Shown: positions 14,713 through 58,758, counted from the first letter of the stretch. The stretch is DNA of 64,000 bases from Bacteroidales bacterium (GCA_036171595.1 JAVHRJ010000602.1:136-64135); one strand, 5' to 3'. Program-made: numbers and translations. Notes: generated by a model from the letters alone, not told the origin.

Positions 14713-17700
14713 TTAAATCCATTTTACAATTGGAAAATCCATTCGGTGAGGAAGTTTTTCGTTTTTAGGGAATACCCTAAACGAAAAATCAAATACTCCA
14801 GAACGAGTTGCAGGAATAACACATTTATACGTTACCTGTCCAGCTTTTTCGTCAATTGGTTTTAATTCCTCAATAAATTGTATTTCTTTTACTTCGTCGA
14901 ATACTTTACGTCCAAAAACTATTTCAATGCCAATATCAGAAGTAGGAATTTCGTGTAAATTAAGTATAATTTCTGCTTCAAAATTTTCGCCTAATAATAA
15001 CGGTTTAACAGTAGAATCGGGCACAACAACATTTACAATTTCAATACTTTCCCATGCTCTAATAATTTTTTGTTTCCATGCAGCAATAGAACGAGCTTCT
15101 TCAAAATTATTATTACGAAGTAAATTTCTACGTTCAATAAGCTTGGTGTAATATTTACTATAGTAATCGTCGAGTTGGCGTTTCATTGTAAACCGAGGAA
15201 CAATATCTGAAATTGTTTTTTTAATAAATGAGATCCATTTTGTTGGTAATCCCGATTTGTCGTTATTGTAGAATGTTGGAACAATTTCGTTTTCGAAAAG
15301 AAAATATAAAGTTTCGGCATCTAATTCATCTTGAAAATCTTGATTGTTATATGTTTTTTCTTCTTTTAATGCCCATCCAGCTCCTTTAACATACCCTTCT
15401 GCCCACCAGCCATCTAATACGCTACAATTTAAAACGCCATTCATAATAGCTTTTTCACCACTTGTTCCAGATGCTTCGAGTGGTCGGGTAGGGGTGTTTA
15501 GCCAAATGTCAACACCTTGCACTAGTTTTTTTGCTAATTCAATATCGTAATTATCTAAAAAAAGTACTTTCCCAATAAACTCTGGCATTCTAGAAATTTC
15601 GATAATTTTTTTAATTAAATCTTGTCCAGCTTTATCGGCAGGGTGTGCTTTACCTGCAAAAACAAATTGCACGGGTTTTTCTTTATTATTTACAATTTCC
15701 GATAATCGTTTTAAATTACTAAAAATTAAATGGGCTCTTTTGTATGTTGCAAATCGTCGAGCAAAACCAATAGTTAAGGCATTCTCGTTAAGTTTTTCAA
15801 CTGTTTCTAAAACGAGAGTTGGATTTTCTTGTCTATTTTCGAGCCCTTCCATTAATTTAACTTTAATGGTATCGAAAAGTTTTTTACGTAATTGCGAACG
15901 AACCTCCCAAATTTTTTCATCAGGGACTTTTGTTATAACAGACCATAATTCGGGATTTGATTGGTCGTTATAAAATTCTTTAGGTAAATATTCGTTATAT
16001 AATTGCCACCACGATTTTGCTACCCATGTTGGAAAATGAACTCCATTTGTAACATAACCAATATGTAACTCTTGTGGAAAATAATTGTCCCATAATGAGT
16101 TAAACATTGTACGCGAAACCTTTCCATGAATTTTGCTTACTCCATTTACTTCTTGCGAAAACTTACAAGCAAGAACACTCATCGAAAATTTTTCTTTATT
16201 ATCAGATTCTCTAACTCGACCCAATCCCATTAATACTTCCCAACTAATATTAAGTTTTTCGGCAAAATACGATAAATATGTTCTAATCATATCTTCATTA
16301 AAAGCGTCGTGTCCAGCAGGAACTGGGGTATGAGTTGTAAATAATGTAGATGCTCTAATAATTTCGATTGCTTCAAAAAATGATAGTCGATGTATTTCAA
16401 CTAATTTACGAAGTCTTTCTAAGCCAATAAAGGCAGCATGACCTTCGTTGCAATGATAAACTATTGGGCTAATATTTAAGGTGGTAAGTAATTTAATGCC
16501 ACCAATTCCTAATAATATTTCTTGTTTTAATCTATGTTCAAGGTCGCCACCATAAAGTTGATGTGTAATTGTTTTATCGGCATCAGAGTTTTCTTCAATA
16601 TCGGCATCGAGTAAATAAAGAGGAACTTTTCCAACATCAACTTTCCAAACTTTTGCGTAAAGTAAACGACCAGGCATTGGAATATTAATTACAACCCAAT
16701 CGCCTTTTTCGTTTCTAACAGGTTGTAGGGGTAAGGCAGTAAATCGTTGAGGTATATATTTTGCAATTTGTTCGCCAGAAACCGAAAGTGTTTGTGTAAA
16801 ATATCCGTATCTGTATAAAAGTCCAATTCCTATTATGTTTTTACCTGAATCGCTTGCTTGTTTTAAATAATCGCCAGCTAATAAACCTAACCCACCAGAA
16901 TATATTTTAACACTATCGTGTAATCCGAATTCCATGCTAAAATAAGAAATAAGGTCGTTTTCCGATTTGTTATTCATATAATTATCAAACATTTCACTAA
17001 CTTTTTTAAGTTTTTGAACAAATGCTTGATTGTTTTCTAATTCGCGATATTTTTCGAAACTAATTTCTTCGAGTAATACAATAGGGTTATGTGAAACAGT
17101 ATCCCAAAGTTCAGCATCAATCATCTCAAAAAGCTCGTGAGCTTCATAGTTCCACGACCACCATAAATTTTTTGCAAGTTTTTGCAAATCAAATAAACTT
17201 TCGGGGATATACGATTTAATAAAAACCTTTTTCCATGTGGGTTTTAAAGTTTCTATATTAGTAAGCGATTTTAAATTTTCGGGGAGTTTTTTTGCTTTAT
17301 ACTCTTCAAATCTTAATTCAGCTTTTGATAAAGCGATTCCAAATGCTTTATGGTAATATGTTATAAGATTTTGCCACAATAATGTTTTTGAAACTTCGAA
17401 AGCTATATTTCGCGCTTCATTAACATCGTTCTGATTTAAAGCCATAAAATCAGTAATAAATGTTGCAATTTTATGATAAACTTCCTCGTGATTAAAATCA
17501 TCACGTTCAATAACTTTTATAGCATTTCCTTTATCGTTACCTTGTTGTTTAACCCATAATCCAAATCCTGCTAGGGTTGTTGTAATTGTAGGAATATGAA
17601 ATGCAATACTTTCAAGAGGAGTATAACCCCATGGTTCGTAATAAGATGGGAATACCGATAAGTCGAACCCAATTAATAAATCGTAATATGGCAAATTAAA

Positions 17701-18951
17701 AATTCCATCAACGCCATTAAAATAACAAGGTACAAAAACAATTTTAACTTTATCGGAAGGACTATTAAAAAGTTTTTTTTCTTTAATACGATTTAAAATT
17801 GGGTCGTTAGCAGAATCGTGCAAGTTGTGTGTAAGATATTCGTTTGAAATAGGTGTAATAAAATCACAATTATGAATACGTTCTAAAAGTTCTGTTCTAG
17901 GCCCAATATGATTTGCAGGAACAGTGATAAATGCTATTATGTTATTTGTTATAGTAGAATTATTATTAATTTCGGAAAGGGCATCAATAAATAGGTCTAT
18001 TCCTTTATTTCTAAATTCATACCTTCCGCTATTAATAACTAGAAGACTGTTTCTATCAATTTTTTGATTTATAAGCGCTTCGGCAACATTAAAAAATTTA
18101 TTTCGTGCAATTTGTCTTTTTTCTTCAAACTCTGAGTCGGATGGCACAAAGGAGTTTTCGAACCCGTTTGGAGTAATAACATCTGCATTTTTATTGTGAA
18201 ATTGAGCACATTCTTTATCGGTTATTTCGCTAACAACGGTAAACGAATCGGCAGTATTAGCCGAAAGCATTTCGAGCGACTGCTTAGATTGAATACCATA
18301 TCTTTCTGATATTTCGTTAGCGTTGTATTTTGTTAAATCTTTGTATAATGGCAATCCATTTCCAGCAATAGAACGTCCAACAGTTGTAGCATGTGTAGTA
18401 AATAATGTGCCAATTTGTGGAACTTCTTTTTTTAAGTATAAAATTCCAGAACCAGTCATCCATTCGTGAAAATGTGCAATAATTTTATCGCTTGATGTGT
18501 GAGAGAAATCGTAAAAACTTTGAATTATTTTTGCGGCGGCATAGCCAAAAAGCGTAGGTTCAATATAATCCCACTGGCCATGCAACGAGTCGAGGCGATA
18601 ATTTTCCCAAAAACTAAAAAATATTTTATCTTTTTGACTAAAATATGGAGTAAAATCTGCTAAAATAACTATTGGTGAACCTGCAATATTCCACCTTCCA
18701 ACTTTAAATTTAAGTCCTTCTATCTCAGCTTGCTTTCTCCAAGTTTTAAATAAAAATTTATCTTCAATAAATTCAGGATTCTGGTTAGTTTCTTTCCATA
18801 CATCGGGACCAATAAGGATGTAGTTATCTTTTAAATCGTCGACTATAGATTTTGCTTTAGTTGATATAACGGTATAAATTCCACCAACTTTATTGCATAC
18901 CTCCCAACTTACTTCAAATAGATAATCGGGTAAAAGGTTGTTTTCAGCCAT
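14713..18951 (-). CDS. Fusion protein: GT3 (eukaryote-type) glycogen synthase domain plus GT35 alpha-glucan phosphorylase domain
   Basis: 1412 aa. The N-terminus carries the GT3 hallmark LFEVSWEVCNKVGGIYTVISTKA. From about aa 590 it shows a DUF3417-like segment (LWWSWNYEAHELFEMID), YFSMEFGLH..YSGGLGLLAGDYLKQASD, and the PLP-lysine context EASGTSGEKAIMNG. These are typical of alpha-glucan phosphorylases. Confidence 0.85.
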   Translation of the reverse strand: MAENNLLPDYLFEVSWEVCNKVGGIYTVISTKAKSIVDDLKDNYILIGPDVWKETNQNPEFIEDKFLFKTWRKQAEIEGLKFKVGRWNIAGSPIVILADFTPYFSQKDKIFFSFWENYRLDSLHGQWDYIEPTLFGYAAAKIIQSFYDFSHTSSDKIIAHFHEWMTGSGILYLKKEVPQIGTLFTTHATTVGRSIAGNGLPLYKDLTKYNANEISERYGIQSKQSLEMLSANTADSFTVVSEITDKECAQFHNKNADVITPNGFENSFVPSDSEFEEKRQIARNKFFNVAEALINQKIDRNSLLVINSGRYEFRNKGIDLFIDALSEINNNSTITNNIIAFITVPANHIGPRTELLERIHNCDFITPISNEYLTHNLHDSANDPILNRIKEKKLFNSPSDKVKIVFVPCYFNGVDGIFNLPYYDLLIGFDLSVFPSYYEPWGYTPLESIAFHIPTITTTLAGFGLWVKQQGNDKGNAIKVIERDDFNHEEVYHKIATFITDFMALNQNDVNEARNIAFEVSKTLLWQNLITYYHKAFGIALSKAELRFEEYKAKKLPENLKSLTNIETLKPTWKKVFIKSYIPESLFDLQKLAKNLWWSWNYEAHELFEMIDAELWDTVSHNPIVLLEEISFEKYRELENNQAFVQKLKKVSEMFDNYMNNKSENDLISYFSMEFGLHDSVKIYSGGLGLLAGDYLKQASDSGKNIIGIGLLYRYGYFTQTLSVSGEQIAKYIPQRFTALPLQPVRNEKGDWVVINIPMPGRLLYAKVWKVDVGKVPLYLLDADIEENSDADKTITHQLYGGDLEHRLKQEILLGIGGIKLLTTLNISPIVYHCNEGHAAFIGLERLRKLVEIHRLSFFEAIEIIRASTLFTTHTPVPAGHDAFNEDMIRTYLSYFAEKLNISWEVLMGLGRVRESDNKEKFSMSVLACKFSQEVNGVSKIHGKVSRTMFNSLWDNYFPQELHIGYVTNGVHFPTWVAKSWWQLYNEYLPKEFYNDQSNPELWSVITKVPDEKIWEVRSQLRKKLFDTIKVKLMEGLENRQENPTLVLETVEKLNENALTIGFARRFATYKRAHLIFSNLKRLSEIVNNKEKPVQFVFAGKAHPADKAGQDLIKKIIEISRMPEFIGKVLFLDNYDIELAKKLVQGVDIWLNTPTRPLEASGTSGEKAIMNGVLNCSVLDGWWAEGYVKGAGWALKEEKTYNNQDFQDELDAETLYFLFENEIVPTFYNNDKSGLPTKWISFIKKTISDIVPRFTMKRQLDDYYSKYYTKLIERRNLLRNNNFEEARSIAAWKQKIIRAWESIEIVNVVVPDSTVKPLLLGENFEAEIILNLHEIPTSDIGIEIVFGRKVFDEVKEIQFIEELKPIDEKAGQVTYKCVIPATRSGVFDFSFRVFPKNEKLPHRMDFPIVKWI

Positions 18952-19033
18952 ATAATATTATTTTATAATTCACAATTAATTTTGTAAAGTTAAATTAATT
19001 CAAAAATTTTAAAAATGTTTTATTAAAATATTT

Positions 19034-19086
19034 AGAATACAATAACTGGCAACTAAATTATAATTAGTTGCCAGTTATTGTATTCT
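19034..19086 (-). terminator. 23-bp perfect palindrome immediately downstream of ccsBA
   Basis: Arms agaatacaataactggcaactaa / ttagttgccagttattgtattct with a 7-nt loop. It lies 10 nt after the ccsBA stop. Confidence 0.6.
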
Positions 19087-19095
19087 ACAAAAAAA

Positions 19096-22000
19096 TTAAT
19101 TTTTGTCTAAATATTTTGAATTAATTTTTTCTTTTATTCCTGCAATTATTATTAAAGCAATAACAGAAAGTATTACAATCCATGCCCATATTGGAAATAA
19201 TGGAGTTTCGCCAGCACCATAACTGTGCATTCCTTTAGATAAATAATAGTTTACTCCAATAAATGTCATAAGTACGCTACTAAACCCAATTATTGATGCA
19301 ACATTAAAAACATAATTTGTATTTAGTTTTGGAATAAATCGTAAATGTAAAACTATAGTATAAGCAATAACAATTATAAGTGCCCAAGTTTCTTTTGCGT
19401 CCCAACCCCAATATCTGCCCCACGATTCGTTTGCCCAAACTCCACCAAGAAAAGTTCCAACTGTTGCTAAAACTAATCCAATTATGATATTCATTTCGCT
19501 TACGTATGTAAGTTCTTTTATTATTAAACTAAGTTTTATATGATTTTTCTTGTTTTTAAAAATTGTAATAAATGAATTAATTAATCCTAAGAAAAATGCA
19601 AGTCCTAAAAACCCATAACTAATTGTTAATGTAGCAACGTGAATAATTAACCAATACGATTTTAAAACAGGTTGTAAATTGGTTAATTGTGGGTCGTAAC
19701 TGCTATGGCTGGCTGTCATTAAAGTAAAAAATGAAAGCAAAACAGTTGCTGCTAAAGTTATTTTCGAGTATTTTACAAAAATAAAACCAGCTAATAAACC
19801 ACCCCATGAAACTAAAATTAACGACTCATATCCATTACTCCAAGGAGCATGACCTGTTAAATACCAACGTAATGCCATTCCTAAAGTATGATATGCAAAG
19901 CCAAGAACTAATAATGCCATTAAAAAGTTAAAAGTGTAATTTAAAATTTTATTTTTCTTCGATTTTAGCGTGTCAATAAAAGCAAGTAATAATAATAATA
20001 CACTTAAACCTGCATAAAAGTTTCTAAGAAAAATAAATATTTGAGCATTATTGTAAAATATTTCAATATTAATTTTTGTTTCAGATGGCAAATCATTTGC
20101 AATTGCAGTAGAGCGTTGAATGCCAGAAATATATTTTAAAATTTTATCCGATTTTTCTATATTGCCCGATTTAAGTTCAGCTAAATATGCATTTAAAATG
20201 CTAGAGTAATTAAAAACAGGCAATTGCAAATCGTCGTTAATAATTTTAAGTGAGCCCGATAATGGCATTAGTGCATTTTTATCATCAACGCTAATCCATT
20301 TGTTATCAGTAGCGTTTTGTATCGGAAATATTTTTAAAATACTACCACGAATAACCATCATAAAAATATTTACTCTTTCATCAACTTTAATTATTTCTTT
20401 ATCGAATGTGTTTTGTTCCGATTGCTTTTTACGAAAAGCATCGTCGGCATAAGTTTGAAGTTTGTATCTTTGAGTATTATCAAAAAAGTCGTTAAAAGTT
20501 GCATATTTATCTTTAATTCCTATTGCATCTCGAACCGATTGTTCTCTTACGTAAATCATTTTTTGCTGTTTCCAAAATTCAGGTTCAATAAGCATATCTA
20601 TTAAAACTTGCATAGCGTTCATTTTACCTTTGTCTTCGATTTCGAAATTGTCTTTTCTCGAAATTTTATGCATAATATCATAAGTAAGCGAATTTAAAGG
20701 TTCGAATCTGCCATCGAAAGTTTGAACTAATAAATGTCCGAATTTTTCCGATTGGTCTTTGTTTACAATATTATTTGTTGTGTTTTGAGAAAAACCAAAT
20801 GCACTAATCGATAAAAATAAAGCAATAGTTAATATTTCTGCTTTACGTTTTCGGGATAATTCTCCAATATGTTTGCTTAATGTTATAAATCTAGATTTTT
20901 TGTTCATTAAAGCTAAAACAAATCCTAATGCTAAAAGTGTGTATCCTAAATAAGAAATCCAAGTTCCGTAAAAGTCGTGATTAACAGAAAGTATTGTGCC
21001 TTGCTCGTCTTGGTCGTATGATGACTGAAAAAATCGAAACTTATCGTAATCTAATACATTATTCATAAATATTCGATGATTTTCGTTAACGTTATTTTTT
21101 GTATCTATTAAAGTTACTTCACTTGCATATGATGAAGGACTCATTGAGCCTGGATATCTTTCTAAAATAAAATTATTTAGTTTTAACGAAAATGGAAGTT
21201 GAATTACTTTACAGCCATAACCAATATTTAATTTGGCGCCATTTACATTAACTGGTTGCATGTTTGCCTCAAAATCGGGTCCACCTAAAATAGAGACAGT
21301 TTCTTTTTTGCCTTTTACTATAACATTTAGCAAAAGTGCGTCAATTTTGCTCTCTTCGGGTTCGCCCGATACCATTTCAATTTTTGCGTTTTTATATTTT
21401 GTTGTTAAAACTATAGCTGATGACACAGAGTTATAAGCAAAATTATGATTAAATTCAGCAATAGAATCTTTTAAAATAGTATCTTGTATTTGCTCTTCTT
21501 GCATATCAGCTAAATATAAATCATAGGGAGCCGATATTGTTAATTTATTGTTAGAATCATTTATTTTAACACTATTATTACTTTTATTGTTGTTGTATGA
21601 AATACTAACTCCATTCATGTCTTTTGTTTCACCAGATTTAATGTAAACTTTATTTCTACCAGTACTTGTAAATATCATTAATTCAATAATATTTGTGCCA
21701 CCATCAACATTTTCATTAACTTTTTCTACGGCATTTTTAACATAGTTATTATATTCTACTGTAATTTCACCATTTGATTTTGATGGTATTTTAATGTCAA
21801 ACGAATTATTTGTTATAGGACTAAAAAGTGTTGGTTTTTCGTAATTATACTCTTCGCCAGCATTCATATTTATAATTAAATTAGGAACTGAGCCTATCAT
21901 AACATTTGAGCTTTCGCCTTTGCGAATGTGCATGTTCCCCTCAAAACTAAAGTAACGAGTAACTCCAGCACCTATAATCATCAAAATAAAAGAAGTATGA

Positions 22001-22242
22001 AAAACAAATCCTGCTAATTTTTCTTTATTCAACATTTTGTATTTGCTAATATGACCAATAAAATTGATTATTAGTAGTAAAAATAAAAACTCGAACCATT
22101 TTGCATTATAAACAAGAATTTTTGCAGTGTTGGTATCAAATTTATCTTCAATAAAAGTTGCAGTTGCTAAAGAAATGGCAAGAATTACAAGTAAAATAAT
22201 TGTCGATTTCGACGAAAATAATGTATTTAGTATTGATTTCAT
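19096..22242 (-). CDS. ccsBA: Fused system II cytochrome c biogenesis protein CcsBA (ResB-like plus CcsA)
   Basis: 1048 aa and polytopic. The C-terminal CcsA part carries the WWD heme-handling motif (WGRYWGWDAKETWALI). A large ResB-like soluble region lies between the N-terminal transmembrane helices. Confidence 0.85.
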   Translation of the reverse strand: MKSILNTLFSSKSTIILLVILAISLATATFIEDKFDTNTAKILVYNAKWFEFLFLLLIINFIGHISKYKMLNKEKLAGFVFHTSFILMIIGAGVTRYFSFEGNMHIRKGESSNVMIGSVPNLIINMNAGEEYNYEKPTLFSPITNNSFDIKIPSKSNGEITVEYNNYVKNAVEKVNENVDGGTNIIELMIFTSTGRNKVYIKSGETKDMNGVSISYNNNKSNNSVKINDSNNKLTISAPYDLYLADMQEEQIQDTILKDSIAEFNHNFAYNSVSSAIVLTTKYKNAKIEMVSGEPEESKIDALLLNVIVKGKKETVSILGGPDFEANMQPVNVNGAKLNIGYGCKVIQLPFSLKLNNFILERYPGSMSPSSYASEVTLIDTKNNVNENHRIFMNNVLDYDKFRFFQSSYDQDEQGTILSVNHDFYGTWISYLGYTLLALGFVLALMNKKSRFITLSKHIGELSRKRKAEILTIALFLSISAFGFSQNTTNNIVNKDQSEKFGHLLVQTFDGRFEPLNSLTYDIMHKISRKDNFEIEDKGKMNAMQVLIDMLIEPEFWKQQKMIYVREQSVRDAIGIKDKYATFNDFFDNTQRYKLQTYADDAFRKKQSEQNTFDKEIIKVDERVNIFMMVIRGSILKIFPIQNATDNKWISVDDKNALMPLSGSLKIINDDLQLPVFNYSSILNAYLAELKSGNIEKSDKILKYISGIQRSTAIANDLPSETKINIEIFYNNAQIFIFLRNFYAGLSVLLLLLAFIDTLKSKKNKILNYTFNFLMALLVLGFAYHTLGMALRWYLTGHAPWSNGYESLILVSWGGLLAGFIFVKYSKITLAATVLLSFFTLMTASHSSYDPQLTNLQPVLKSYWLIIHVATLTISYGFLGLAFFLGLINSFITIFKNKKNHIKLSLIIKELTYVSEMNIIIGLVLATVGTFLGGVWANESWGRYWGWDAKETWALIIVIAYTIVLHLRFIPKLNTNYVFNVASIIGFSSVLMTFIGVNYYLSKGMHSYGAGETPLFPIWAWIVILSVIALIIIAGIKEKINSKYLDKN

Positions 22243-29964: not shown

Positions 29965-30225
29965 ATGAAAAAACTTTTTGGACTTTTAATGATTGCAGGA
30001 ATGATGTCATTCGTTGCATGTGGACCTAGTGCAGAAGAGCAAGCTGCTGCTCAAGCTAAAGCTGACTCTTTAAAAGCTGATTCAATTGCTCAAGTTGAAG
30101 CTGCTGCTGCTGCTGTTGAACAAGCTAAAGCTGATTCAATAGCTCAAGTTGAAGCTGCTGCTGCTCAAGCTACAGCTGATTCAATTGCTGCTGCTGATGC
30201 AAAAGGTAAGAAAAAAGGAAAATAA
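29965..30225 (+). CDS. Small alanine-rich repeat lipoprotein
   Basis: Lipobox (MSFVACG). The mature part is almost entirely A/Q/K/D/S/E in repeats (AKADSIAQVEAAAA x2) with a KGKKKGK tail. It has a -7 box 27 nt upstream and a hairpin terminator directly downstream. Confidence 0.6.
   Translation: MKKLFGLLMIAGMMSFVACGPSAEEQAAAQAKADSLKADSIAQVEAAAAAVEQAKADSIAQVEAAAAQATADSIAAADAKGKKKGK
30052..30200 (+). repeat. Tandem 54-nt (18-codon) repeat inside the Ala-rich lipoprotein gene
   Basis: The 39-nt core aaagctgattcaat(t/a)gctcaagttgaagctgctgctgct occurs at 30073-30111 and 30127-30165. Partial copies flank it on both sides. Confidence 0.8.
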
Positions 30226-33340: not shown

Positions 33341-33362
33341 TAAATAAATTAAATATTTAAGG

Positions 33363-33393
33363 CCCTAACATTTTATTTTGTTAGGGTTTTTTT
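33363..33393 (+). terminator. Rho-independent terminator after etfA
   Basis: Stem ccctaaca / tgttaggg followed by ttttttt. Confidence 0.7.
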
Positions 33394-33395
33394 AT

Positions 33396-33403
33396 TAGAT
33401 TTG
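33396..33403 (+). promoter_or_regulatory. Candidate -7 box for the four-gene secreted-protein locus
   Basis: tagatttg, 29 nt upstream of the ATG at 33433 and just after the etfA terminator. Confidence 0.45.
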
Positions 33404-33432
33404 TAAAACTCAAAATAAAAATAAAAAAATTT

Positions 33433-34296
33433 ATGAAAATAATTCTCTCAATATTGTTTTTGTTTATAGTAAATTTTATTTATTGTCAAGAAGATATTAG
33501 CAGATCTAAAACATCACCTGAAATTCCCGATTCAGCTTTTGAAAACATGGGAGTTTCTGTTTCTCCCTCAAGTATGCATTTATTTATTAAGCCTGGAACA
33601 TCTGTTTTAAAAGAAATTCGTATTAAAAATTCTACCAAACAACTATATAAATTTAATATAAACTATTGTGATTTTGAAATGGGGAGAAATGGAAAACCAT
33701 TATCTCTTAAATCTGGTGAAGGAAAATATGGGTTATCTAAATGGATAAATGTTGCCCCATCGTATTTTGAATTAAAACCACAAGAAGAATTAAAATTAAA
33801 AGTAGTAATAGAAATACCCGATATTGAAGATGCTTATCATGCAGCTTGGACAATTATTACTATTGATCAAGTAATTGACCGAGAGCCGCTTGATGCAGTA
33901 GATAAGCCAAATCGTATTTCAATGGGTATAACACCAAGTATTGGTTTTGGGATATACGTTTACCAAAACCCACCAAATGTTAAGATTAATAGTGTACAAA
34001 TTGATAAGTTTTTATATAAAGATAGTTTAAATAAACGAAAAATTGAAATGGTAGTTAAAAATACTGGCGATGGAATAAGTTATTGCACTTCTTATGTTGA
34101 GCTAACAAATACAAAAACAGGAAAGCAAGATAAGCTTAAAGTAAAAAGATTTACTATTTTACCTCAATTTTTTAGAGATTTTAATTATGAGTTGCCAATC
34201 GATTTGCCTTCAGGAAATTATACTGCAGTTGGTGTAGTTGATTTTGGTAGTTCAGAAGAAATTATTGCAGCACAAGCCGAATTTGTCGTACCTTAA
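33433..34296 (+). CDS. Secreted two-module beta-rich protein, candidate periplasmic chaperone-like component (hypothetical)
   Basis: Signal peptide (NFIYCQE). There are two ~110-aa beta-strand-rich halves with an Ig-like alternation (VSVSPSSMHLFIKPGTSVLKEIRIKNST.. and KIEMVVKNTGDGISYCTSYVELTNTKTG..). It is the first gene after the etfA terminator and a TAnnTTTG box. The function is inferred. Confidence 0.4.
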   Translation: MKIILSILFLFIVNFIYCQEDISRSKTSPEIPDSAFENMGVSVSPSSMHLFIKPGTSVLKEIRIKNSTKQLYKFNINYCDFEMGRNGKPLSLKSGEGKYGLSKWINVAPSYFELKPQEELKLKVVIEIPDIEDAYHAAWTIITIDQVIDREPLDAVDKPNRISMGITPSIGFGIYVYQNPPNVKINSVQIDKFLYKDSLNKRKIEMVVKNTGDGISYCTSYVELTNTKTGKQDKLKVKRFTILPQFFRDFNYELPIDLPSGNYTAVGVVDFGSSEEIIAAQAEFVVP

Positions 34297-34492
34297 AAGC
34301 AACTTTTTTGTTTTTTTGAAGTATAAAGCATTGTTAATATTACTTTTATAAACAAAAATTAATAAAACAAAATAAAGTTTTAAAATAAAAGATTATTCAA
34401 AATAACATGAAGCATGATATTTTGAAAAGCGTTGAGGTTTCGCTTAGTAAAAACCAAAATTCTTAATTGTTTTAACTTAAAACTATAATAAC

Positions 34493-35275
34493 ATGAAAAA
34501 AATATTCTTAGTTTTTTCCTTTTTAGGATTGTTTTCTGCTTATTCTTTTGGTCAATTAATTGATGAAAAGAATGTTACCGTTACAATGGATTTGCAACCT
34601 ATTTTACAACTTAATATGACAACATCTGACCAAGTTGATTTTGTGTTTGATGATATTAGAGATTATTATGGTGGTATAATTAGATATGCAGCTACTGTAT
34701 TAAAAGTTTCTTCATCTGTAAGTTGGGATTTGTATGCAGTTGGTACATCTCAAGGAAATAATGGTGTTGGTTTTTGGGATCAACAAATGACTTATAGTGG
34801 TGGTGGTGGTGCTAATGCAATTAGTGCTTTGCCATTAAGTTTACTTGAACTACACCAATATGAGCCAAACCAATATGATGCAAATGCTACAGGTGCTCAA
34901 ACCGATTATAGCACTGCTTTTACTCCAGCTAGTGGACTTGCAGTAGGTGTAAACAGTATTTATTATAGTGGAACTCCATATACTGCTCCACTTGCAACCG
35001 AGAAATATATTCAAGGTCATAAAGGAACAGTTGCTGGTCAAGATGGTGCACCTGGCGGAAGCTATTTAATTGCAAACCCTCCTGCTGGTACATTTAGCGA
35101 TTATTATTTTACTATCGATTATCGTATTCTTCCTGGATTACCTGCAATATTTAAAAATGCAGGTACAAATGCTGGTGTTGCTGAAGACCTAGTTACCATA
35201 AATGGTGCTGGTACTTATGCAAATCCTGGTGTTTATACTATGAACGTTAAATATGTTTTATTAGAAGACCAATAG
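34493..35275 (+). CDS. Secreted Gly/Ala/Thr-rich protein, candidate major fibre subunit (hypothetical)
   Basis: Signal peptide. The mature N-terminus is an alternating hydrophobic strand (VTVTMDLQPILQLNM). The C-terminus (DYYFTIDYRILPG ... PGVYTMNVKYVLLE) is paralogous to the next ORF. A hairpin terminator follows the gene. Confidence 0.4.
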   Translation: MKKIFLVFSFLGLFSAYSFGQLIDEKNVTVTMDLQPILQLNMTTSDQVDFVFDDIRDYYGGIIRYAATVLKVSSSVSWDLYAVGTSQGNNGVGFWDQQMTYSGGGGANAISALPLSLLELHQYEPNQYDANATGAQTDYSTAFTPASGLAVGVNSIYYSGTPYTAPLATEKYIQGHKGTVAGQDGAPGGSYLIANPPAGTFSDYYFTIDYRILPGLPAIFKNAGTNAGVAEDLVTINGAGTYANPGVYTMNVKYVLLEDQ

Positions 35276-35283
35276 AAATGCAT

Positions 35284-35316
35284 AAAAAGGATTAACCAAA
35301 ATGGTTAATCCTTTTT
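35284..35316 (+). terminator. Hairpin terminator or attenuator between the two paralogous subunit genes
   Basis: Stem aaaaaggattaacc / ggttaatccttttt with a 5-nt loop. It lies 9 nt after the stop at 35275 and 25 nt before the next ATG. Confidence 0.6.
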
Positions 35317-35340
35317 ATTAACATTTAAAAAATTTACCGA

Positions 35341-35988
35341 ATGAGATTTTGCGGTAAAATTATTCTATTGCAAATAGTTTTATTTCTAACAACTTGTGTT
35401 TATTCGCAACCTTGTTTGAATCCGCTTACAACAAATTGTGCCGATGCAATTGCAGGAACAAGCCAATTTTTAATGTCAACATCTTCAAATGTTAACTTTG
35501 AATTTAGCGATATGCAAAAATATGTAAGCGGAATAACTAATAGCAACTCTACTCAATTAAGGTTAAAAATTGACGAAACAACTCCTGGTCAATGTAAATG
35601 GAAATTAATGATGTACATTGATAATAATGGATTTTTACCTAATAATGAGTGGGAGCCTATTATGTATTATGGAACTTCGGGAACATCTCCAGAACTCGAT
35701 TTAATACAAGTTAAAGTATATAATGGTTGTGGAACTGCCATAAATAGTGGAACGTATCAAATTTTTGCTGCAAATGTTAATTATACAATTTTAGATATTA
35801 TTAATGATCCAATTAACAGAAATATGCCAGGTACTTGCGATGGAACTCAAATTAATGGCCCTGGAAGTTATTTAACAGATTATAATGAATATAATTTTAA
35901 TATAGATTATAGAATTATACCAGGTTATTTATCAAGAACAGGAGTATATCAGATTAAAATAAATTTTTGTTTAGTAGAAGTGCCATAA
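35341..35988 (+). CDS. Secreted Cys-containing paralog of the preceding ORF, candidate minor or tip subunit (hypothetical)
   Basis: Three blocks are shared with the 34493..35275 product: TSSNVNFEFSDMQKYVSGI vs TSDQVDFVFDDIRDYYGGI; GPGSYL..EYNFNIDYRIIPG vs GGSYL..DYYFTIDYRILPG; and GVYQIKINFCLVE vs GVYTMNVKYVLLE. Confidence 0.4.
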   Translation: MRFCGKIILLQIVLFLTTCVYSQPCLNPLTTNCADAIAGTSQFLMSTSSNVNFEFSDMQKYVSGITNSNSTQLRLKIDETTPGQCKWKLMMYIDNNGFLPNNEWEPIMYYGTSGTSPELDLIQVKVYNGCGTAINSGTYQIFAANVNYTILDIINDPINRNMPGTCDGTQINGPGSYLTDYNEYNFNIDYRIIPGYLSRTGVYQIKINFCLVEVP

Positions 35989-35997
35989 ATATTATTA

Positions 35998-38976
35998 ATG
36001 AATAACAAAGAGCAAACAATTTGTTTTTTTCGATTTTCAAAAATTTTTATTTTTTTTGGATTTATATGCTATATTTTCACATCTAGTATCTTAGGTTTTT
36101 CGCAAGATACTATTTCTCAAAATGCACTTCCTATTAAAACTAATAACTTGCAATTTTCATTTAAAAAAGATTTAGTAGAATTTTCGAAGGGTGAAATGGT
36201 ATCCAATGTTTTAACAATATACAATAATAAAAATACTGAAATTAAATTTTATACTGATATTTCTATTCCAACAAACTGGAGTGTGCTTACTCAAAAAAAC
36301 AAACTATATACTATTGCTCCAGGGGATAGCATGTTTATTCCAATACACATTCTTCCAAAAATAAATTTAAAGGGTAGCTCTAAATTTTTATTTACCATTT
36401 ACTTATATAATGAAAATAATGAACCATACGGATTTACCTTCTTTTATGGTGAAATCAAAAAAAATATTTCATGGCAACTGTCAACTATAAATAATAAAAT
36501 TTATTTGCTTAATGGACAATCATCTGCACCATTTAATTTTACACTTGCAAACTCGGGTACAGACGATCAAGATGTTCATCTAACATTATTTAATATTTCT
36601 AAATCTGTATCGATACTCGATTCGGCTGGCATTAATGATGTTAAATTGCCATTAACATTAAATTTAAAATCTCAAAAAGATACTACATTTTACTATACAT
36701 TTTTAAAACATATAGAACCTCGAAATTATAGGTTAATTGATATTGATGGGTATAGGCCATATAGTTTAGGTGAAGAAAAAAAATTCACAATAACTGCTAA
36801 TAGTACATCGCCAAATCCAAGCGATTTTGATAAGTTTAGAATAGGAAAAAAAATAGAATTTGTTCAATTGTCTGATGTTAGAACTGTAAACCAATACGGA
36901 ACAGATGTTATCCCAATTTTATTTGATTTAAATGCGTTTAATATTTTAGGGTCAAACCCTATGATGAATTTAACATTAAGTGGTCAAACATTAATAAACG
37001 AGAAGTCATCAATTATTTACAATTCACAATTATCGTATTATTCTAATTTTTTTACTACTAATCCATACGAAAACGCTACATTATTTTTAGGATATTTTCA
37101 TACTAAATTTAACATTCAATATGGTAATATATCGGGTGGAATATTAGGCACTTATCAAAATGGACAGGGAATAAAATCTGAATATTACATTGACAATAAT
37201 CAGCGAATAGGCGTTTTTTATACAAGAAGTCCACATTTGTTTTCTGGTAATTCTAATTATTCTACTTTTGGCGTAACACATAACTTTCAGAATGCTTTAT
37301 TTAGAATAAATTCGCAATTTGGACATAGCATAAATAGTGTTCAACATAAATTTACAGATATTTTAAATGTAAATATTTCTACTAATATTATTAAAAATCA
37401 TAGTTTTGGAATACGGGCTGGATTGAGTAGAAATGTAAGACAAGATACCGTTGTAGTTAATTATGGAATGATGGGAGGCTTTTACTACAATGGAAAATAT
37501 TTTCATCAAAAATTAAATACTAATATTAATGCATTATTTAACTCTGCATCGTTTGGTTTTATTAATTATGAAAGACTTACGGCTAATATTGGTAATGATT
37601 ATTCGCTTAATAAAAAATGGAAAATAAGTTTAAAAAATAATTTATATAGGTATCCCGATATATACCAATTAGCAAACAAACCTAATTACATGGTAAATAA
37701 TCAAGTTAATTTTAGTAGATTAAATTCTAAAGTTGGAAATTTTTCACCTTATGCCTTTTATAATTTATCGCGTTTTCAGGAATTTAGAGTACATTCTAAA
37801 GGCTTAGGCTTAAATTTAGGTAAATATAATTTAAATGAAAATTATAGATACTTTATTAACTTAATGTCTGGTTATAACAAATCACCCGATACATTAAATA
37901 AAAGCTTTTTCTTTTTTCAATTTGCAGGATTTATGCAAATACGAACAGTGTCTTTTTCAGTAAGATACCAACTTGGCAATTATAGTACAACAAAATCATA
38001 CTATGCATATAATAGTTTAAAAAATCCTCAAAATATTACATTATCTCTTCGGCATCAATATGTATTCCCTCGCCCTGCATTTATATTACAAAACGCTATA
38101 AGCTATTCTTATTCAACTATTTCGGGTAGGAGTGTTAATTTTAATCCAGAAATTTACTGTTATACCAACAATGGTTGGAGATTTAGAGTATTTTCAGAAA
38201 TTAATTTTTCTATAAGTTCAAACTCAAATTTTAAAGAAATATATTATCCAGTTGCTGGTAATTCAGAAAACACATCACCAGTGTGGAATAAAGGATTTTA
38301 TTTGGGGGTTGGTGTTAGAAAAGAGTTTGGAATACCGATACCAAAAACTAAGAAAAAATATTGCACTATTAATTTCATTGCATTTTATGATATAAATGGA
38401 GATGGTAAACGTGATCGTAACGAAGATTTACTTGAAAACGTGGTTGTTAGAACTGACGCTTGGGAGGTTATTACAAATAAAGATGGTGAAGCTTCTTTGG
38501 TGAGTGTGCCAATTGGCCAATATCTTTTTAATGTATTTTCAATTTCCGATTTAAAAGGTTGGTTTCCACATGTAAATGATACTATTACACTTACTAAATC
38601 GGAAAATTTTTATGTGCCTTTTACGCGTGGTATAAAAGTTACAGGTAAAGTTTTTCTTGATAAAGATAAGTTAACTGCTGATGCTGATAAGCAGATGGAC
38701 TTATCAAGAATTAAAATTTCGGCTGTTAATGATAGAACATTTACTACATTAACAAAATTTGATGGGTCGTTTGAGTTTTATATTCCAACAGGCAAATATA
38801 TTCTTACTATGGATGAAAAAGTGTTAGGTGAAAGGTTTCAACTTTTACAAAATAATTTTGAACTTAGTATTGATGTTAAATTTGATAATTTATTTATTCC
38901 GTTTTATATAATTGAAAAACGACGTAAATTAAATCTTATAAAATTCGATTCTAATGGAAATAGAATTAACGAATAA
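35998..38976 (+). CDS. 992-aa secreted or outer-membrane mosaic protein, candidate usher/platform: N-terminal Ig-like modules, central beta-barrel-like region, C-terminal SdrD-B/CarboxypepD_reg-like modules (hypothetical)
   Basis: Signal or anchor at the N-terminus. Two modules resemble the 33433 product in pattern (EMVSNVLTIYNNKNTEIKFYTDISIP; SAPFNFTLANSGTDDQDVHLTLFN). A long Y/N/F/G-rich region has an alternating beta pattern. The C-terminus shows FYDINGDGKRDRNEDLLENVVV..TNKDGEASL and VTGKVFLD..TKFDGSFEFYIPTGKY. Confidence 0.4.
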   Translation: MNNKEQTICFFRFSKIFIFFGFICYIFTSSILGFSQDTISQNALPIKTNNLQFSFKKDLVEFSKGEMVSNVLTIYNNKNTEIKFYTDISIPTNWSVLTQKNKLYTIAPGDSMFIPIHILPKINLKGSSKFLFTIYLYNENNEPYGFTFFYGEIKKNISWQLSTINNKIYLLNGQSSAPFNFTLANSGTDDQDVHLTLFNISKSVSILDSAGINDVKLPLTLNLKSQKDTTFYYTFLKHIEPRNYRLIDIDGYRPYSLGEEKKFTITANSTSPNPSDFDKFRIGKKIEFVQLSDVRTVNQYGTDVIPILFDLNAFNILGSNPMMNLTLSGQTLINEKSSIIYNSQLSYYSNFFTTNPYENATLFLGYFHTKFNIQYGNISGGILGTYQNGQGIKSEYYIDNNQRIGVFYTRSPHLFSGNSNYSTFGVTHNFQNALFRINSQFGHSINSVQHKFTDILNVNISTNIIKNHSFGIRAGLSRNVRQDTVVVNYGMMGGFYYNGKYFHQKLNTNINALFNSASFGFINYERLTANIGNDYSLNKKWKISLKNNLYRYPDIYQLANKPNYMVNNQVNFSRLNSKVGNFSPYAFYNLSRFQEFRVHSKGLGLNLGKYNLNENYRYFINLMSGYNKSPDTLNKSFFFFQFAGFMQIRTVSFSVRYQLGNYSTTKSYYAYNSLKNPQNITLSLRHQYVFPRPAFILQNAISYSYSTISGRSVNFNPEIYCYTNNGWRFRVFSEINFSISSNSNFKEIYYPVAGNSENTSPVWNKGFYLGVGVRKEFGIPIPKTKKKYCTINFIAFYDINGDGKRDRNEDLLENVVVRTDAWEVITNKDGEASLVSVPIGQYLFNVFSISDLKGWFPHVNDTITLTKSENFYVPFTRGIKVTGKVFLDKDKLTADADKQMDLSRIKISAVNDRTFTTLTKFDGSFEFYIPTGKYILTMDEKVLGERFQLLQNNFELSIDVKFDNLFIPFYIIEKRRKLNLIKFDSNGNRINE

Positions 38977-38986
38977 GAAATCGGAA

Positions 38987-39652
38987 TTATAAACGATCTA
39001 CATAAAACTCCTTAACCTTTTTAGAAGCTTCATTAAACTCATTTAAATTTAAAATTGTTTCTTTGTCTTTTGCTTTATTGACAATTGTTATAACAATTCT
39101 ACCACTACCCATATTAAATTCATTTTTAAAATCGTAGTATGCACCAATTATTGTAAGTTTTTTATTTGTAACTAATTCGCGATACTTTTTAAATGCAATA
39201 TTAACCTGATAATCAATATTATGTTGAATTGTAGCAGAAAGCTGATCTTCAATATTTATTTTGCCAATAGTTTTATTAATTAATGGAAATAAAAAATCGA
39301 GCTCGCGTTTAATGTTATACGATTCTTCGTTAAATCCTTTTATATAAGCTTTTATTGCTCCACAATCGGAATGTCCAAGAACCATTAAAACAGGGGTTTT
39401 TAAATGTAAAATTCCATAATCGACAGAACCTTCGCACGAAAGTATCTGATTGCCAATGTTTTCTATTTTAAATATTTTGTTAATCGTATCGGGCATTACT
39501 GCGTTTGCTGGTACTCTAGAATCAGCACAACTGACTAATGTTATATATGGATTTTGATGAGTTGCATGCCCCGAAAAATATTCTTTATTATGCAGTTTTA
39601 CAAATTCATTATTTCCTTCAACAATTTCTTTTAAAATATCGGAGGTTTTCAT
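38987..39652 (-). CDS. Beta-class carbonic anhydrase
   Basis: Zinc ligand motifs CADSR and HSDCGAIKA are present. It is the last gene of the carboxylase operon. Confidence 0.85.
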   Translation of the reverse strand: MKTSDILKEIVEGNNEFVKLHNKEYFSGHATHQNPYITLVSCADSRVPANAVMPDTINKIFKIENIGNQILSCEGSVDYGILHLKTPVLMVLGHSDCGAIKAYIKGFNEESYNIKRELDFLFPLINKTIGKINIEDQLSATIQHNIDYQVNIAFKKYRELVTNKKLTIIGAYYDFKNEFNMGSGRIVITIVNKAKDKETILNLNEFNEASKKVKEFYVDRL

Positions 39653-55066: not shown

Positions 55067-58000
55067 ATGTTAAAGAAGATTTTTTTCATCTTAGCGGTTG
55101 CAATCATTTCTACGAATGTTTTTGCACAATCTGGAACTTTACAAGGTAAAGTTGTTGATGCCTCAAATGGTGAAGCAATTGCTTTTGCTAATGTAAGTGT
55201 TGAATCTAATGGTCAGGTTGTTACAGGTGGTATGACTGACTTTGATGGTAAATTTGTAATTAAACCTATACCTGCTGGAAATTACGATGTTAAAGCATCT
55301 TATGTGGGTTATCATACCTTACAATATAAAGGTTTAAAAATAATGTCTGGTAAAATTACTTTCCAAGACTTTAAAATTTCTCCTTCTTCCCAAGTTTTGA
55401 ATGAAGTAGAAGTAAAAGAATATAAAGTGCCATTAATTAGCAAAGACCAAACATCTACCGGAGGTTCTGTTACTTCCGAAGAAATAGCTAAAATGCCTGG
55501 TCGTAGTGCCGATGCTGTTGCAACAACTGTTGGTGGTGTTTACTCTGAGCGTGGTGAAGTTGGTAGCATTCGTGGTTCTCGTTCAGAAGCTACTGTTTAT
55601 TATATTGATGGAGTAAAAGTTCGTGGTTCTTCAAATATGCCAAAATCTGCTACAGGTCAAGTTGAAGTTATTACTGGTGGAATACCAGCTAAATATGGTG
55701 ATGTTACTGGTGGTATTATTAGTGTTACTACAAAAGAACCTGCACGCGAAACTTATGGTTCGGTTGAGTTAGTAACATCTAAATTATTAGATGCTTATAA
55801 TTATAATCTTGCAGAATTTACATTTACAGGTCCATTATATTCTAAAAAAACTGTTGACCCTTATGATTCAACTAAAATTAAAAAAGATGTAAAGGCTGGA
55901 TATTTTTTATCGGCAAGTTATCATTCAGAAGCCGATGGTTCACCATCATCAATTGGATGGTGGAAAGCTAATGATGGTGTAGTTGAACAAATGCTTGCTG
56001 ACCCATATCGTAGAAATGAAACAGGCTTTGGTGCGTTATTAAACACTGAATTTTTAGGTGCCGAAAACTTTAAAAAGGTAAAAGCACAAAGTGATGCTCA
56101 AAGTAAAGAAATGTCAATTTCTGGTAAAGTTGATTTTAAGCCATCGCGTAACGTAAATATAACTTTTGGTGGAACTTTTAACTATTTGAAATATAGAGAT
56201 GTAGATTATGCAAATTCATTATTTAATTCAAATAACAACGGAGAAGTAATTAACCGTACAATGCGTGGTTATGCTCGTATTACTCAAAAATTCCAATCTG
56301 ATGATGAAAAAGAAAACGCCACAGCTCTAATAAAAAATGCATTCTATCAAATTCAATTCGATTATACAAAAAACTACCAAACTGTTCAAGATCCTTATAA
56401 TAAAAATGACCTCTTTAAATATGGTTATGTTGGTAAATTTACAACTACTAAGGTTAACTCTTATGGCTGGACTGATACAGTTTCTGGCTACTCCTCTGGA
56501 GTATGGAACCATAATGGTTTTGCCGATTTATATTATGCTTTTGAACCTTCGGATATTAATCCCGACTTAGCTGCATATACTTCAGCATATTATAGTTTAT
56601 ATCCACAATTAAGTGGTTTTTATCAAAATATGGAAAACGTACAAGCTGGCAAGGGGTTGCTTAATGGAGAAAACCCTGATCCTACCTATACAACAAGTGG
56701 AACTCAATTAAATGCTGGTGGAACTTTATATAATAGTCCTGGTACTTTTTATAATGGGAACTCAAAATTAGAAAATACGCAGTATAGAGTTTCAGCTTCG
56801 GGTTCGGCCGATATTAAAGGTCATGAAATTTCTATTGGTTTCGAATTTGAACAACGTGATGACCGCTCTTTTGGAGTTAGTCCATCTTCTCTTTGGGCTT
56901 ACGGAAGACAATATACTAATAAACATATTAATGAATTAGACACAAAAAACCCTCATCCAGTGTATGATGCTAATGGAGTTTTTCAGGATACAGTTTGGTA
57001 CGATAGATTATATACAAATACTCAAACTCAGTTCGATGAAAAGTTAAGAGAAGCATTAGGAATGCAAAAAACTGGATTAAATTGGATCGATTTTGACTCT
57101 TACGATCCTTCAATTTTTTCTATTGATTTTTTTAGTGCAGATGAATTATTAAATACAGGTAGATATAGTATTGTTAGCTATTATGGTTTTGACGCACATG
57201 GTAAAAAATTAACATCAAAACCAACTTTAAACGACTTTTTAACAGCCACTGATGAAAATGGTAGAATGAAATTCGAAATACCTTCATTTCAGCCAATTTA
57301 TGGAGCTGCTTATCTTCAAGATAAATTTGCTTTTAATGATTTAGTTTTTAATGTTGGACTACGTATTGACCGTTTTGATGCAAATCAAATGGTATTAAAA
57401 GACCCATATTGTTTGTACGAGACAGTTAAAGCTAGCGAAATTCCTTCATTTTTGGGAACACGACCTGGCAATATTTCTTCAGATGCTGTAGTTTACACTG
57501 ATAATGTTGATAATCCAACTGCCATTAAAGGATATAGAGAAGGAACTTCACCTCAGGATGTTAAATGGTACGATGCTAACGGAACTCAAATTACCGACCC
57601 AAGTTTAATTGCAAGTAATGGAATTATGAACCCATATTTAGTTAAAAATGATAAGGTACTAAGAATAGGTGGTTTTAAAGATTACGAACCGCAAATTAAT
57701 GTAATGCCAAGAATAGCTTTTTCGTTTCCTATTTCCGATGTAGCCTTATTTTTTGCTCATTATGATATATTAACAAAAAGACCTACAAGTTATGGTCGAA
57801 TGAATCCTATTCAATATTATTATATTGAATCAAAAGCCGCCGACCCACTTAATAATCCTAATTTAAAAACCGAAAAAACTATTGATTATGAGTTAGGTTT
57901 TCAACAGAAATTAAACAATACTTCATCATTAAAAATTTCTGCATTTTATCGTGAAATGAGAGATAATGTTCAAGTTCAATATATGTTTGGTGCTTATCCA

Positions 58001-58738: not shown

Positions 58739-58758
58739 TTTGAAAAAAATTAAATGAT

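Follow-up and report, generated by a model that had tools for sequence, protein, structure and literature searches.

Chaperone-usher assembly of pili is found in Proteobacteria and a few other phyla, and the surface fibres of Bacteroidota are thought to use type V pili and type IX secretion (T9SS). To our knowledge, no chaperone-usher system has been recognised in Bacteroidota. Here we analysed a stretch of 64,000 nucleotides (nt) of DNA from a Bacteroidales bacterium (GCA_036171595.1, JAVHRJ010000602.1:136-64135), in the following called the window, in which the unit at positions 33396-38976 comprises four genes for secreted proteins (33433-38976, all on the + strand; g1 to g4, Table 1). We consider it likely that the four genes form a self-contained operon by which Bacteroidota assemble tubular pili of the TLP-1 type in an ATP-independent, chaperone-usher-like manner. 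The operon probably reveals which bacteria make the TLP-1 pilus, namely Bacteroidota, and with which machinery they assemble it.

The TLP-1a/b fibres (PDB 9IKJ/9IKK) are 8-nm helical tubular fibrils with a lumen of 15 Å that were obtained from pond water and solved by cryo-electron microscopy (cryo-EM) at 3.2-3.5 Å resolution in the CryoSeek study (PMC11494351). Donor-strand exchange is seen at 3.2 Å: the immunoglobulin (Ig)-like fold of protomer n is completed by the N-terminal strand β1 of protomer n+4, in a helix with a rise of 11.5 Å and a twist of 75.1° (PMC11494351). The fibres are abundant in pond water and occur free in filtered water; their source organism was not identified, with no metagenomic or mass-spectrometric match, and the study is silent on assembly genes (PMC11494351). 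The best predicted-structure match reported there is an unannotated Flavobacteriales protein with less than 40% identity (PMC11494351). A second point of reference is provided by the WxLIP proteins, which consist of two Ig-like domains and a transmembrane helix and from which, according to prediction, a strand is inserted into the WxL partner (PMC10599100). A paper accompanying the 2026 WxLIP crystal structures was not found in the literature searched.

Comparison with these systems starts from g2. A profile built from 52 homologues of g2 matches the TLP-1 entries in the PDB (9IKK, E=3e-65; 9IKJ, E=5e-64; 16 chains each). The window protein alone finds the same two entries with phmmer (E=2e-49 and 2e-48, respectively) over residues 22-258, i.e. 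the whole mature protein, and BLASTP against TLP-1a/b gives full-length alignments (E~1e-53) with 41-42% identity, values that are approximate because the TLP-1 sequences were partly inferred from density. The TLP-1 chain in the cryo-EM structure begins at the residue equivalent to Gln21 of g2. Directly after the signal-peptide cleavage site lies the donor strand, which is near-invariant in 71 loci and almost unchanged between g2 (LIDEKNVTVTMDLQPILQL) and TLP-1 (LISEQNVTVTMDLQPVLQL). The N-terminal strand that the original prediction had named for donor-strand use (VTVTMDLQPILQL) is exactly the one exchanged in the homologous TLP-1 fibres. At the opposite end of g2 the C-terminal strand (..[KQ]Y[VI]LLEDQ) is near-invariant across the related loci; it forms the end of the fold and is retained in the mature fibre. 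Among the four proteins g2 is the most conserved, with a median identity of the homologues to the window protein of 60%, compared to 44% for g1, 38% for g3 and 32% for g4.

Judged by its sequence, g2 belongs to the TLP-1 pilin family, being related to the pond fibril subunit without being the same protein. Given the full-length homology, the near-identical donor strand and the same mature N-terminus, g2 is expected to form the same 8-nm donor-strand-exchange tubule, which is known so far for the pond fibrils alone. The SCPU, Csu and DUF4402 pilin families give no match to g2, g3 or the 52 g2-family members, even at E<=1. Three further objects were set aside during the comparison. The name 'TLP-2' in a later CryoSeek preprint refers to something else, a dipeptide glycofibril, and the entry named 'TLP-2' in the PDB (9IKK) is TLP-1b; the cyanobacterial CT pili have an unrelated fold; and a paper on archaeal cannulae merely cites CryoSeek.

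The protein encoded by g3 had been predicted to be a paralogue of g2. This holds in BLASTP (E=1e-8, 24% identity) and in a search with the g2-family hidden Markov model (HMM; E=4e-12), and both proteins have an FxFD..KY..GI block, a DYRI.PG block and the GVY-x final strand in common. When 79 g3 sequences are aligned, the 10-13 residues that make up the donor strand in g2 are missing from most of them. The g3 family carries an invariant Cys directly after the cleavage site and three more conserved Cys, while g2 has none. A single-sequence PDB search with g3 returned nothing. The tip adhesin of chaperone-usher pili is an acceptor-only subunit, and since g3 appears to correspond to it in this respect, we infer from the alignment that g3 may be the tip or nucleator subunit.

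The AlphaFold2 (AF2) model of g1 (predicted local distance difference test, pLDDT, 87) contains two β-sandwich domains and no anchor, in agreement with the two Ig-like β-rich halves originally described; the protein ends in its last β-strand (..AEFVVP) with no C-terminal transmembrane helix. In Foldseek the model finds as its best PDB matches (E~4e-12) the Enterococcus faecium WxLIP structures 9i1y and 9i25, of which 9i25 is a complex with a WxL protein. They are followed by ~40 chains of chaperone-usher chaperones (probability 1.0, E 1e-9 to 1e-8), and the chaperones matched are CfaA, FimC, CsuC, Caf1M, PapD, DraB, EcpB and CupB2 (target template modelling (TM) scores 0.5-0.57). RbmA and hydin/CEP192-type domains are other structural neighbours common to g1 and g4. 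Because of the WxLIP and chaperone fold matches of this two-domain, anchor-less protein, g1 as modelled is regarded as a soluble periplasmic member of the WxLIP/chaperone-like fold class. The most conserved segment of g1, PNRxxMGIxPSxGFGxYVYQNPPN (amino acids (aa) 159-182), covers in the model a loop of low confidence and the strand that ends domain 1, and is a candidate complementing element for the subunit groove.

At the sequence level, the search with g1 yielded 191 homologues, named only as Bacteroidales, Bacteroidia or Bacteroidota metagenome-assembled genomes (MAGs). Some of them carry a precomputed PF06030 annotation, and the copy from one source is named 'P pilus assembly chaperone PapD'. 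A Pfam scan of 54 g1-family members gave weak matches to WxLIP_PGBD/DUF916 (40 members, best E=2e-7), MSP (11), PapD_N (5, best E=9.8e-5) and WxLIP_HBD/DUF3324 (3), and none to PapD_C. Matches of g1 domain 2 to synaptotagmin C2 domains, the sole result of a single-sequence PDB search, were rejected as generic β-sandwich noise.

These similarities bring in the alternative that the locus is a Gram-negative counterpart of the WxL/WxLIP systems, in which g1 would not leave g2 and g3 but form with them an adhesion complex that is static and does not polymerise. In its favour, the highest-ranking structural match of g1 is WxLIP, DUF916 is matched by most members of the g1 family, and in WxL clusters, too, a single WxLIP is accompanied by two small secreted proteins related to each other (PMC10599100). 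However, g1 lacks the transmembrane helix of WxLIP, no WxL-domain match was found in g2, g3 or the g2 family, the homologues of g2 demonstrably form long polymers, and a large outer-membrane protein is an obligatory partner in the locus. A static adhesion complex is thus scarcely probable.

This outer-membrane protein is g4. Its AF2 model (pLDDT 70, predicted TM score, pTM, 0.47) starts with a signal helix and contains, as had been predicted, a large barrel, flanked by β-sandwich domains. The largest gaps between consecutive barrel strands are 14-23 residues. Foldseek ranks the FimD usher 9fy9_D first (E=1e-12, 813 columns), further FimD and PapC structures follow at 1e-12 to 1e-8, and LptD and TonB-dependent barrels trail at ~1e-7, ~5 orders of magnitude weaker than the best match. 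The top FimD and PapC matches (1e-12 to 1e-9) extend over ~800 columns. The FimD translocation domain 3ohn_A aligns with g4 over 551 columns with a TM score of 0.46. Based on the model, g4 has an usher-like architecture and is not a member of the Usher family at the sequence level.

A word-index search found 21 relatives of g4, and an exhaustive profile search found 1055 clusters at 50% identity with E<=1e-3 (207 with E<=1e-30), mostly full-length proteins of 950-1500 aa. Pfam matches were counted per protein in the 21 close relatives and in 27 distant ones (18-26% identity). CarboxypepD_reg is found in 16/21 close and 26/27 distant relatives, SdrD_B in 4/21 and 22/27, SPOR in 5/21 and 5/27, and the Ig-like FixG_C, counted at any position in the protein, in 0/21 and 6/27. 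The peptidoglycan-binding SPOR domain lies at the extreme C-terminus of the longer relatives, as located in one of them (P0273), which suggests that this end is periplasmic; with an even number of barrel strands the N-terminal domains would then be periplasmic too, as in ushers. Regarding the composition of g4 given by the original prediction, the C-terminal CarboxypepD_reg/SdrD_B-like modules are recovered at the family level, whereas the g1-like modules stand at the fold level only: similarity in sequence between g1 and g4 was rejected (BLASTP E=0.67, hhalign probability 8%). There are hints that the N-terminal domains of g4 and g1 are distantly related, with a profile-profile comparison that is not significant. 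Sporadic FixG_C matches occur in both the g1 and the g4 family. Family variants of g4 include proteins with a SPOR domain (P0123, P0127, P0273) and with extra regions that have no Pfam match, namely N-terminal extensions of 450-600 aa in P0287 and P0292 and a C-terminal region of ~560 aa in P0270.

All four N-termini combine a hydrophobic core with a site of the signal peptidase I type, in which a small residue precedes the cut (-1) and Gln follows it (+1). The Gln at +1 is invariant in the g1, g2 and g4 families, and its presence in all four proteins fits the Bacteroidetes Q-rule for signal peptides (PMC5837995, PMC10653852). These N-terminal features confirm the Sec-type signal peptides that had been assigned to all four products. 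The absence of a T9SS C-terminal domain (CTD) and of a convincing lipobox was likewise found again: Pfam scans gave no Por_Secre_tail (T9SS CTD) or FimA-type match in the four proteins or their families, and g1 has no lipobox because its Cys18 is not conserved, the family consensus at the cleavage site being A-Q. Pfam and NCBIfam scans of the four window proteins themselves returned nothing significant. Type V pili, T9SS cargo and SCPU/Csu/DUF4402 pilins were excluded as the identity of the locus products.

To follow the locus across genomes we used a pattern scan of one genome per GTDB species. At least 212 genomes contain a relative of g2, and the best 80 loci were analysed by HMM scans of all open reading frames (ORFs). 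All four families lie on one strand in 76/80 loci, as expected from the co-occurrence across Bacteroidota that had been proposed as a check; three of the four loci without the full set are at contig ends, and the fourth is an extra orphan pilin gene. The gene order is g1-g2-g3-g4 in 67 loci, g2-g3-g4-g1 in 6 and g2-g1-g3-g4 in 3, and the flanking genes vary between lineages. No fifth conserved linked gene was found across the 80 loci (best candidate RecG, 12/80), nor was a linked ATPase, inner-membrane or other export component.

This linkage bears on the alternative that g4 is not the exporter but an outer-membrane anchor or an unrelated porin-like protein, with the pilins leaving the cell through T9SS, the type II secretion system (T2SS) or a similar route. 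Such a role would be compatible with the lack of sequence homology of g4 to ushers, with the moderate confidence of its model and with T9SS cargo genes that lie near one locus. However, no complete locus has the pilin without a linked g4, regardless of gene order and flanks, and no other export component is linked. Moreover, g2 and g3 have no T9SS CTD, the C-terminus of g2 being the near-invariant final strand that is kept in the mature fibre. We regard a non-exporting g4 as quite improbable.

With two exceptions, the 80 loci carry Bacteroidota labels: Bacteroidales, Lentimicrobiaceae, Flavobacteriaceae, Vicingaceae, Salibacteraceae, Crocinitomicaceae, Sphingobacteriales and MAGs labelled Chitinophaga. 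The exceptions are an 'uncultured bacterium' (L043) and a MAG of 'uncultured Bifidobacteriaceae' (L046). The latter (CAZHTC010000003.1) carries a complete cassette in the order g2-g1-g3-g4 on a 347-kb contig, much like that in the Bacteroidia loci L014/L019, and the label is probably a binning or labelling error rather than a sign of transfer to Actinomycetota. Cultured carriers include Pseudotenacibaculum strains, and the cassette of P. haliotis KCTC 52127 (L032) is intact. In Pseudotenacibaculum sp. MALMAid0570 (L002/L031, 7018-7962) the g1 homologue is split into ORFs of 91 and 146 aa, which may reflect a frameshift, a pseudogene or a sequencing error. Single loci show a tandem duplication of g2 (L034, 7118-8774) or an orphan g2 (L037, 71-859), the latter on a separate contig of a MAG whose complete cassette is L023.

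A further conserved element is the stem-loop directly 3' of g2. For the folding of the 70 nt 3' of g2 in 81 loci, the median is -21.4 kcal/mol (z=-5.8), and values of <=-12 kcal/mol occur in ~98%, while the same test finds a hairpin 3' of g1 in 6% and 3' of g3 in 13% of the loci. The structure is conserved and the stem sequences differ between loci; many stems are followed by T-runs. A hairpin after papA and fimA represents the same arrangement in chaperone-usher operons. By inference, the hairpin after g2 is probably an attenuator or mRNA stabiliser that sets subunit stoichiometry, and it fits an abundant g2 together with low-copy g3 and g4.

From these data the following mechanism can be proposed. 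All four proteins would cross the inner membrane by Sec and be cleaved by signal peptidase I, as their sequences and the mature N-terminus of TLP-1 suggest. The major subunit g2 would have an Ig-like fold that lacks one strand and is filled by the N-terminal strand of another subunit, as seen by cryo-EM for its homologues TLP-1a/b. In the periplasm g1 may cap the open groove of g2 and g3 and block premature polymerisation, which is suggested by its fold, its WxLIP/PapD similarity and the strict gene linkage. As an outer-membrane barrel of ~26 strands, g4 would recruit the chaperone-subunit complexes and pass the subunits out in single file, consistent with its model and its similarity to FimD/PapC. 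Since g3 would accept a donor strand and give none, it could be incorporated first and thus be placed at the distal tip, or it could nucleate the fibre. The hairpin after g2 might set the high ratio of pilin to machinery.

Several observations weigh against this chaperone-usher-like reading, in addition to the approximate nature of the identity to TLP-1 noted above. First, the similarity of g1 and g4 to chaperones and ushers is at the fold level only, with low TM scores (0.27-0.57) in comparisons that span several domains. The g1 window protein gives no match to PapD_N (PF00345), PapD_C (PF02753) or DUF916/DUF3324 (PF06030/PF11797) in Pfam at E<=1. Likewise, no sequence match to Usher (PF00577) was found in the g4 window protein, in the close relatives (0/21) or in the distant ones (0/27), so that the very divergent relatives, scanned as a possible bridge to this family, provide none. 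Searches of PDB sequences with g4-family profiles found no usher and gave as sole match an SdrD B-domain to the C-terminal module, and the single-sequence search with g4 returned nothing. Second, the g4 model is of moderate confidence, and no plug is inserted in its barrel. Ushers have a 24-stranded barrel with a plug domain, their hallmark, inserted between strands 6 and 7. A small conserved β segment ahead of the predicted barrel (aa 262-296) might act as a plug according to the model. Third, the TLP-1 fibre is four-stranded (donor n+4) and 8 nm wide, for which a single-file usher offers no obvious explanation.

With four independent donor-strand-linked strands and a width of 8 nm, export in single file requires lateral association outside the cell, and coordination of several strands is probably needed as well. 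Because of this four-stranded geometry we keep a curli-like pathway, 'secrete then nucleate on g3', as the main rival. Here g1 would be a periplasmic holdase and g4 a mere secretion pore for monomers, and both strand exchange and four-strand association would take place outside the cell on g3 as a surface nucleator. The four-start arrangement (n+4 to n) gives a fibre of 8 nm that is too wide for any single barrel, an acceptor-only paralogue such as g3 could nucleate, a plug is not seen in the g4 model, and TLP-1 fibres are found free in filtered water. However, the β-sandwiches of g4 flank the barrel in the manner of ushers, the structures that g4 matches best are FimD and PapC rather than channels of the CsgG type, and g1 has the fold of chaperones that bind folded, groove-open subunits. 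In addition, type 1 and P pili gain their wide helical form only outside the usher. We therefore consider the curli-like route rather unlikely.

Export through g4 by a chaperone-usher-like mechanism remains the preferred reading, and it agrees with the pathway that the original prediction had proposed as undescribed. Among the observations checked that could have spoken against it, none of the proteins showed confident homology to a characterised system of another kind, while a chaperone-type fold in the model of g1, membership of g2 in a pilin family with donor-strand exchange, a predicted barrel in g4 and the joint occurrence of the four genes were found. The term 'chaperone-usher-like' stands for the fold and the operon logic; as none of the proteins is a sequence-level PapD or Usher member, the system is not a classical chaperone-usher pathway. 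Taking all parts together, we lean slightly towards the view that Bacteroidota have a complete chaperone-usher-type pathway of their own, diverged or convergent, with a chaperone of the DUF916/WxLIP lineage, a plug-less usher of ~26 strands with tandem Ig and transthyretin-like periplasmic domains, and a four-stranded hollow TLP-1 pilus as product. If true, this would link the WxL surface complexes of Gram-positive bacteria with the pilus chaperones of diderms and would require that the four donor-strand-exchange strands be coordinated in a manner not known so far.

Table 1. Features of the four-gene unit and its borders (positions in the window)
Feature	Position	Strand	Description
etfA intrinsic terminator hairpin	33359-33390	+	5' border of the unit; from terminator scan and sequence reading
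TAGATTTG, candidate Bacteroidota -7 promoter box (TAnnTTTG)	33396-33403	+	30 nt 5' of g1; weak evidence
g1	33433-34296	+	287 aa; secreted, two Ig-like domains, no membrane anchor; candidate periplasmic pilin chaperone with PapD/WxLIP-like fold
g2	34493-35275	+	260 aa; TLP-1-family major pilin; mature from Gln21, after a signal peptide of aa 1-20
g2 N-terminal donor strand NVTVTMDLQPILQLN (aa 26-40)	34568-34612	+	near-identical to the TLP-1 N-terminus LISEQNVTVTMDLQPVLQL
Stem-loop, 17-bp perfect stem	35282-35318	+	directly 3' of g2; candidate intra-operon attenuator or mRNA stabiliser
g3	35341-35988	+	215 aa; minor pilin paralogue with conserved Cys and without donor strand; candidate tip/nucleator subunit
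g4	35998-38976	+	992 aa; usher-like predicted outer-membrane protein
g4 two N-terminal β-sandwich domains (aa 51-237)	36148-36708	+	from model secondary structure; presumed periplasmic
g4 predicted outer-membrane barrel (aa 304-780)	36907-38337	+	~26 consecutive long β-strands, no inserted plug (model)
g4 two C-terminal transthyretin/CarboxypepD_reg/SdrD_B-like β-sandwiches (aa 788-973)	38359-38916	+	positionally like usher CTD1/CTD2

The four co-oriented ORFs were found exactly at the positions given before. The unit is preceded by genes for an acyl-CoA dehydrogenase, etfB and etfA, and followed by a convergent gene that ends at 38987, with a gap of 10 nt from the stop codon of g4. The view of a self-contained unit is borne out by the etfA terminator and by this convergent gap, whereas its own TAnnTTTG box is present but statistically meaningless. 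The AT-rich window contains 104 matches to this motif versus 127 expected; the motif is not enriched, and the box was rejected as promoter evidence. By its sequence, the TAGATTTG box is compatible with a promoter and no evidence for one. The spacer between g1 and g2 (34297-34492) is unusually long (196 nt), very AT-rich and free of a TAnnTTTG box; a second promoter, or an element that regulates the pilin gene, could lie there. Elsewhere in the window, a small predicted lipoprotein of 86 aa (..FVAC..) with Ala/Gln/Glu-rich repeats (ADSIAQVEAAAA..) is encoded at 29965-30225 (+), just 5' of the acyl-CoA dehydrogenase gene and etfBA, and two pairs of very large ORFs lie at 14713-22242 (-; 1412 and 1048 aa) and 55067-62937 (+; 1223 and 1392 aa).

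In the literature searched, whose coverage is incomplete and gives no proof of absence, we found neither the operon nor any chaperone-usher-like system of Bacteroidota described, and no account of where TLP-1 comes from or follow-up on it. The pathway is one not described in that literature, and a solved but orphan pilus would be assigned to a phylum and to a candidate assembly machine, in cultivable strains. The question of who makes TLP-1 and how becomes testable, including in cultured Pseudotenacibaculum. A chaperone-usher analogue at the fold level without sequence similarity would extend this assembly principle and add a deep branch for its evolution, with a possible link to the WxLIP proteins of Firmicutes, and the four-stranded hollow geometry poses a new mechanistic problem that cannot be derived from a single-file usher. 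The family has a wide distribution among environmental Bacteroidota, with at least 212 GTDB species genomes and ~1,000 usher-like clusters at 50% identity. As the fibres are abundant in pond water, TLP-1-type fibres may have a part in biofilms, in aggregation or in attachment to particles in aquatic systems.

How, then, does the locus relate to the known systems? Type V pili (FimA/Mfa) occur in the same phylum and also polymerise by strand exchange, but unlike type V pili and T9SS cargo the four proteins show no lipobox or lipoprotein precursor, no signal for protease-dependent maturation, no FimA-type Pfam match and no T9SS CTD. With the WxLIP systems (DUF916-DUF3324-transmembrane helix; Enterococcus, Lactobacillus, Listeria; 9I1Y/9I25; PMC10599100) the locus has in common the best structural match of g1, weak family matches to DUF916/DUF3324, a first domain with a split N-terminal strand and a long conserved loop, and the combination of one WxLIP-type protein with two related small secreted proteins per cluster. 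It differs in that g1 is without a transmembrane helix, its partners are not WxL-domain proteins, and the system is that of a diderm, with an outer-membrane barrel protein and a polymer as product.

The classical and archaic chaperone-usher systems (Fim, Pap, Caf, Csu, CupE) follow the same operon logic, with a chaperone, a major pilin, a minor pilin and a large outer-membrane protein, all of them Sec-dependent and with no ATPase. Further common features are subunits with an incomplete Ig fold and N-terminal donor-strand exchange (here known from the TLP-1 homologues), a chaperone fold of two Ig domains, a tip-type subunit without donor strand, a hairpin after the major pilin gene and, in the model of g4, a large barrel with N-terminal and two C-terminal β-sandwich domains. 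In contrast to these systems, homology to PapD_N, PapD_C or Usher is not detectable in the sequences. The predicted barrel of g4 has ~26 strands instead of 24, with no mid-barrel plug seen, two N-terminal Ig-like domains and C-terminal domains of the transthyretin/CarboxypepD_reg type that are sometimes followed by SPOR. The fibre of the TLP-1 type is four-stranded (donor n+4) and hollow, and the host phylum is Bacteroidota. Finally, with TLP-1a/b the locus has in common a full-length homologue in g2, the donor strand and the mature N-terminus; while TLP-1 was described as an orphan structure, the pilin is found here within a conserved operon together with a candidate chaperone, a minor pilin and a candidate outer-membrane assembly protein.

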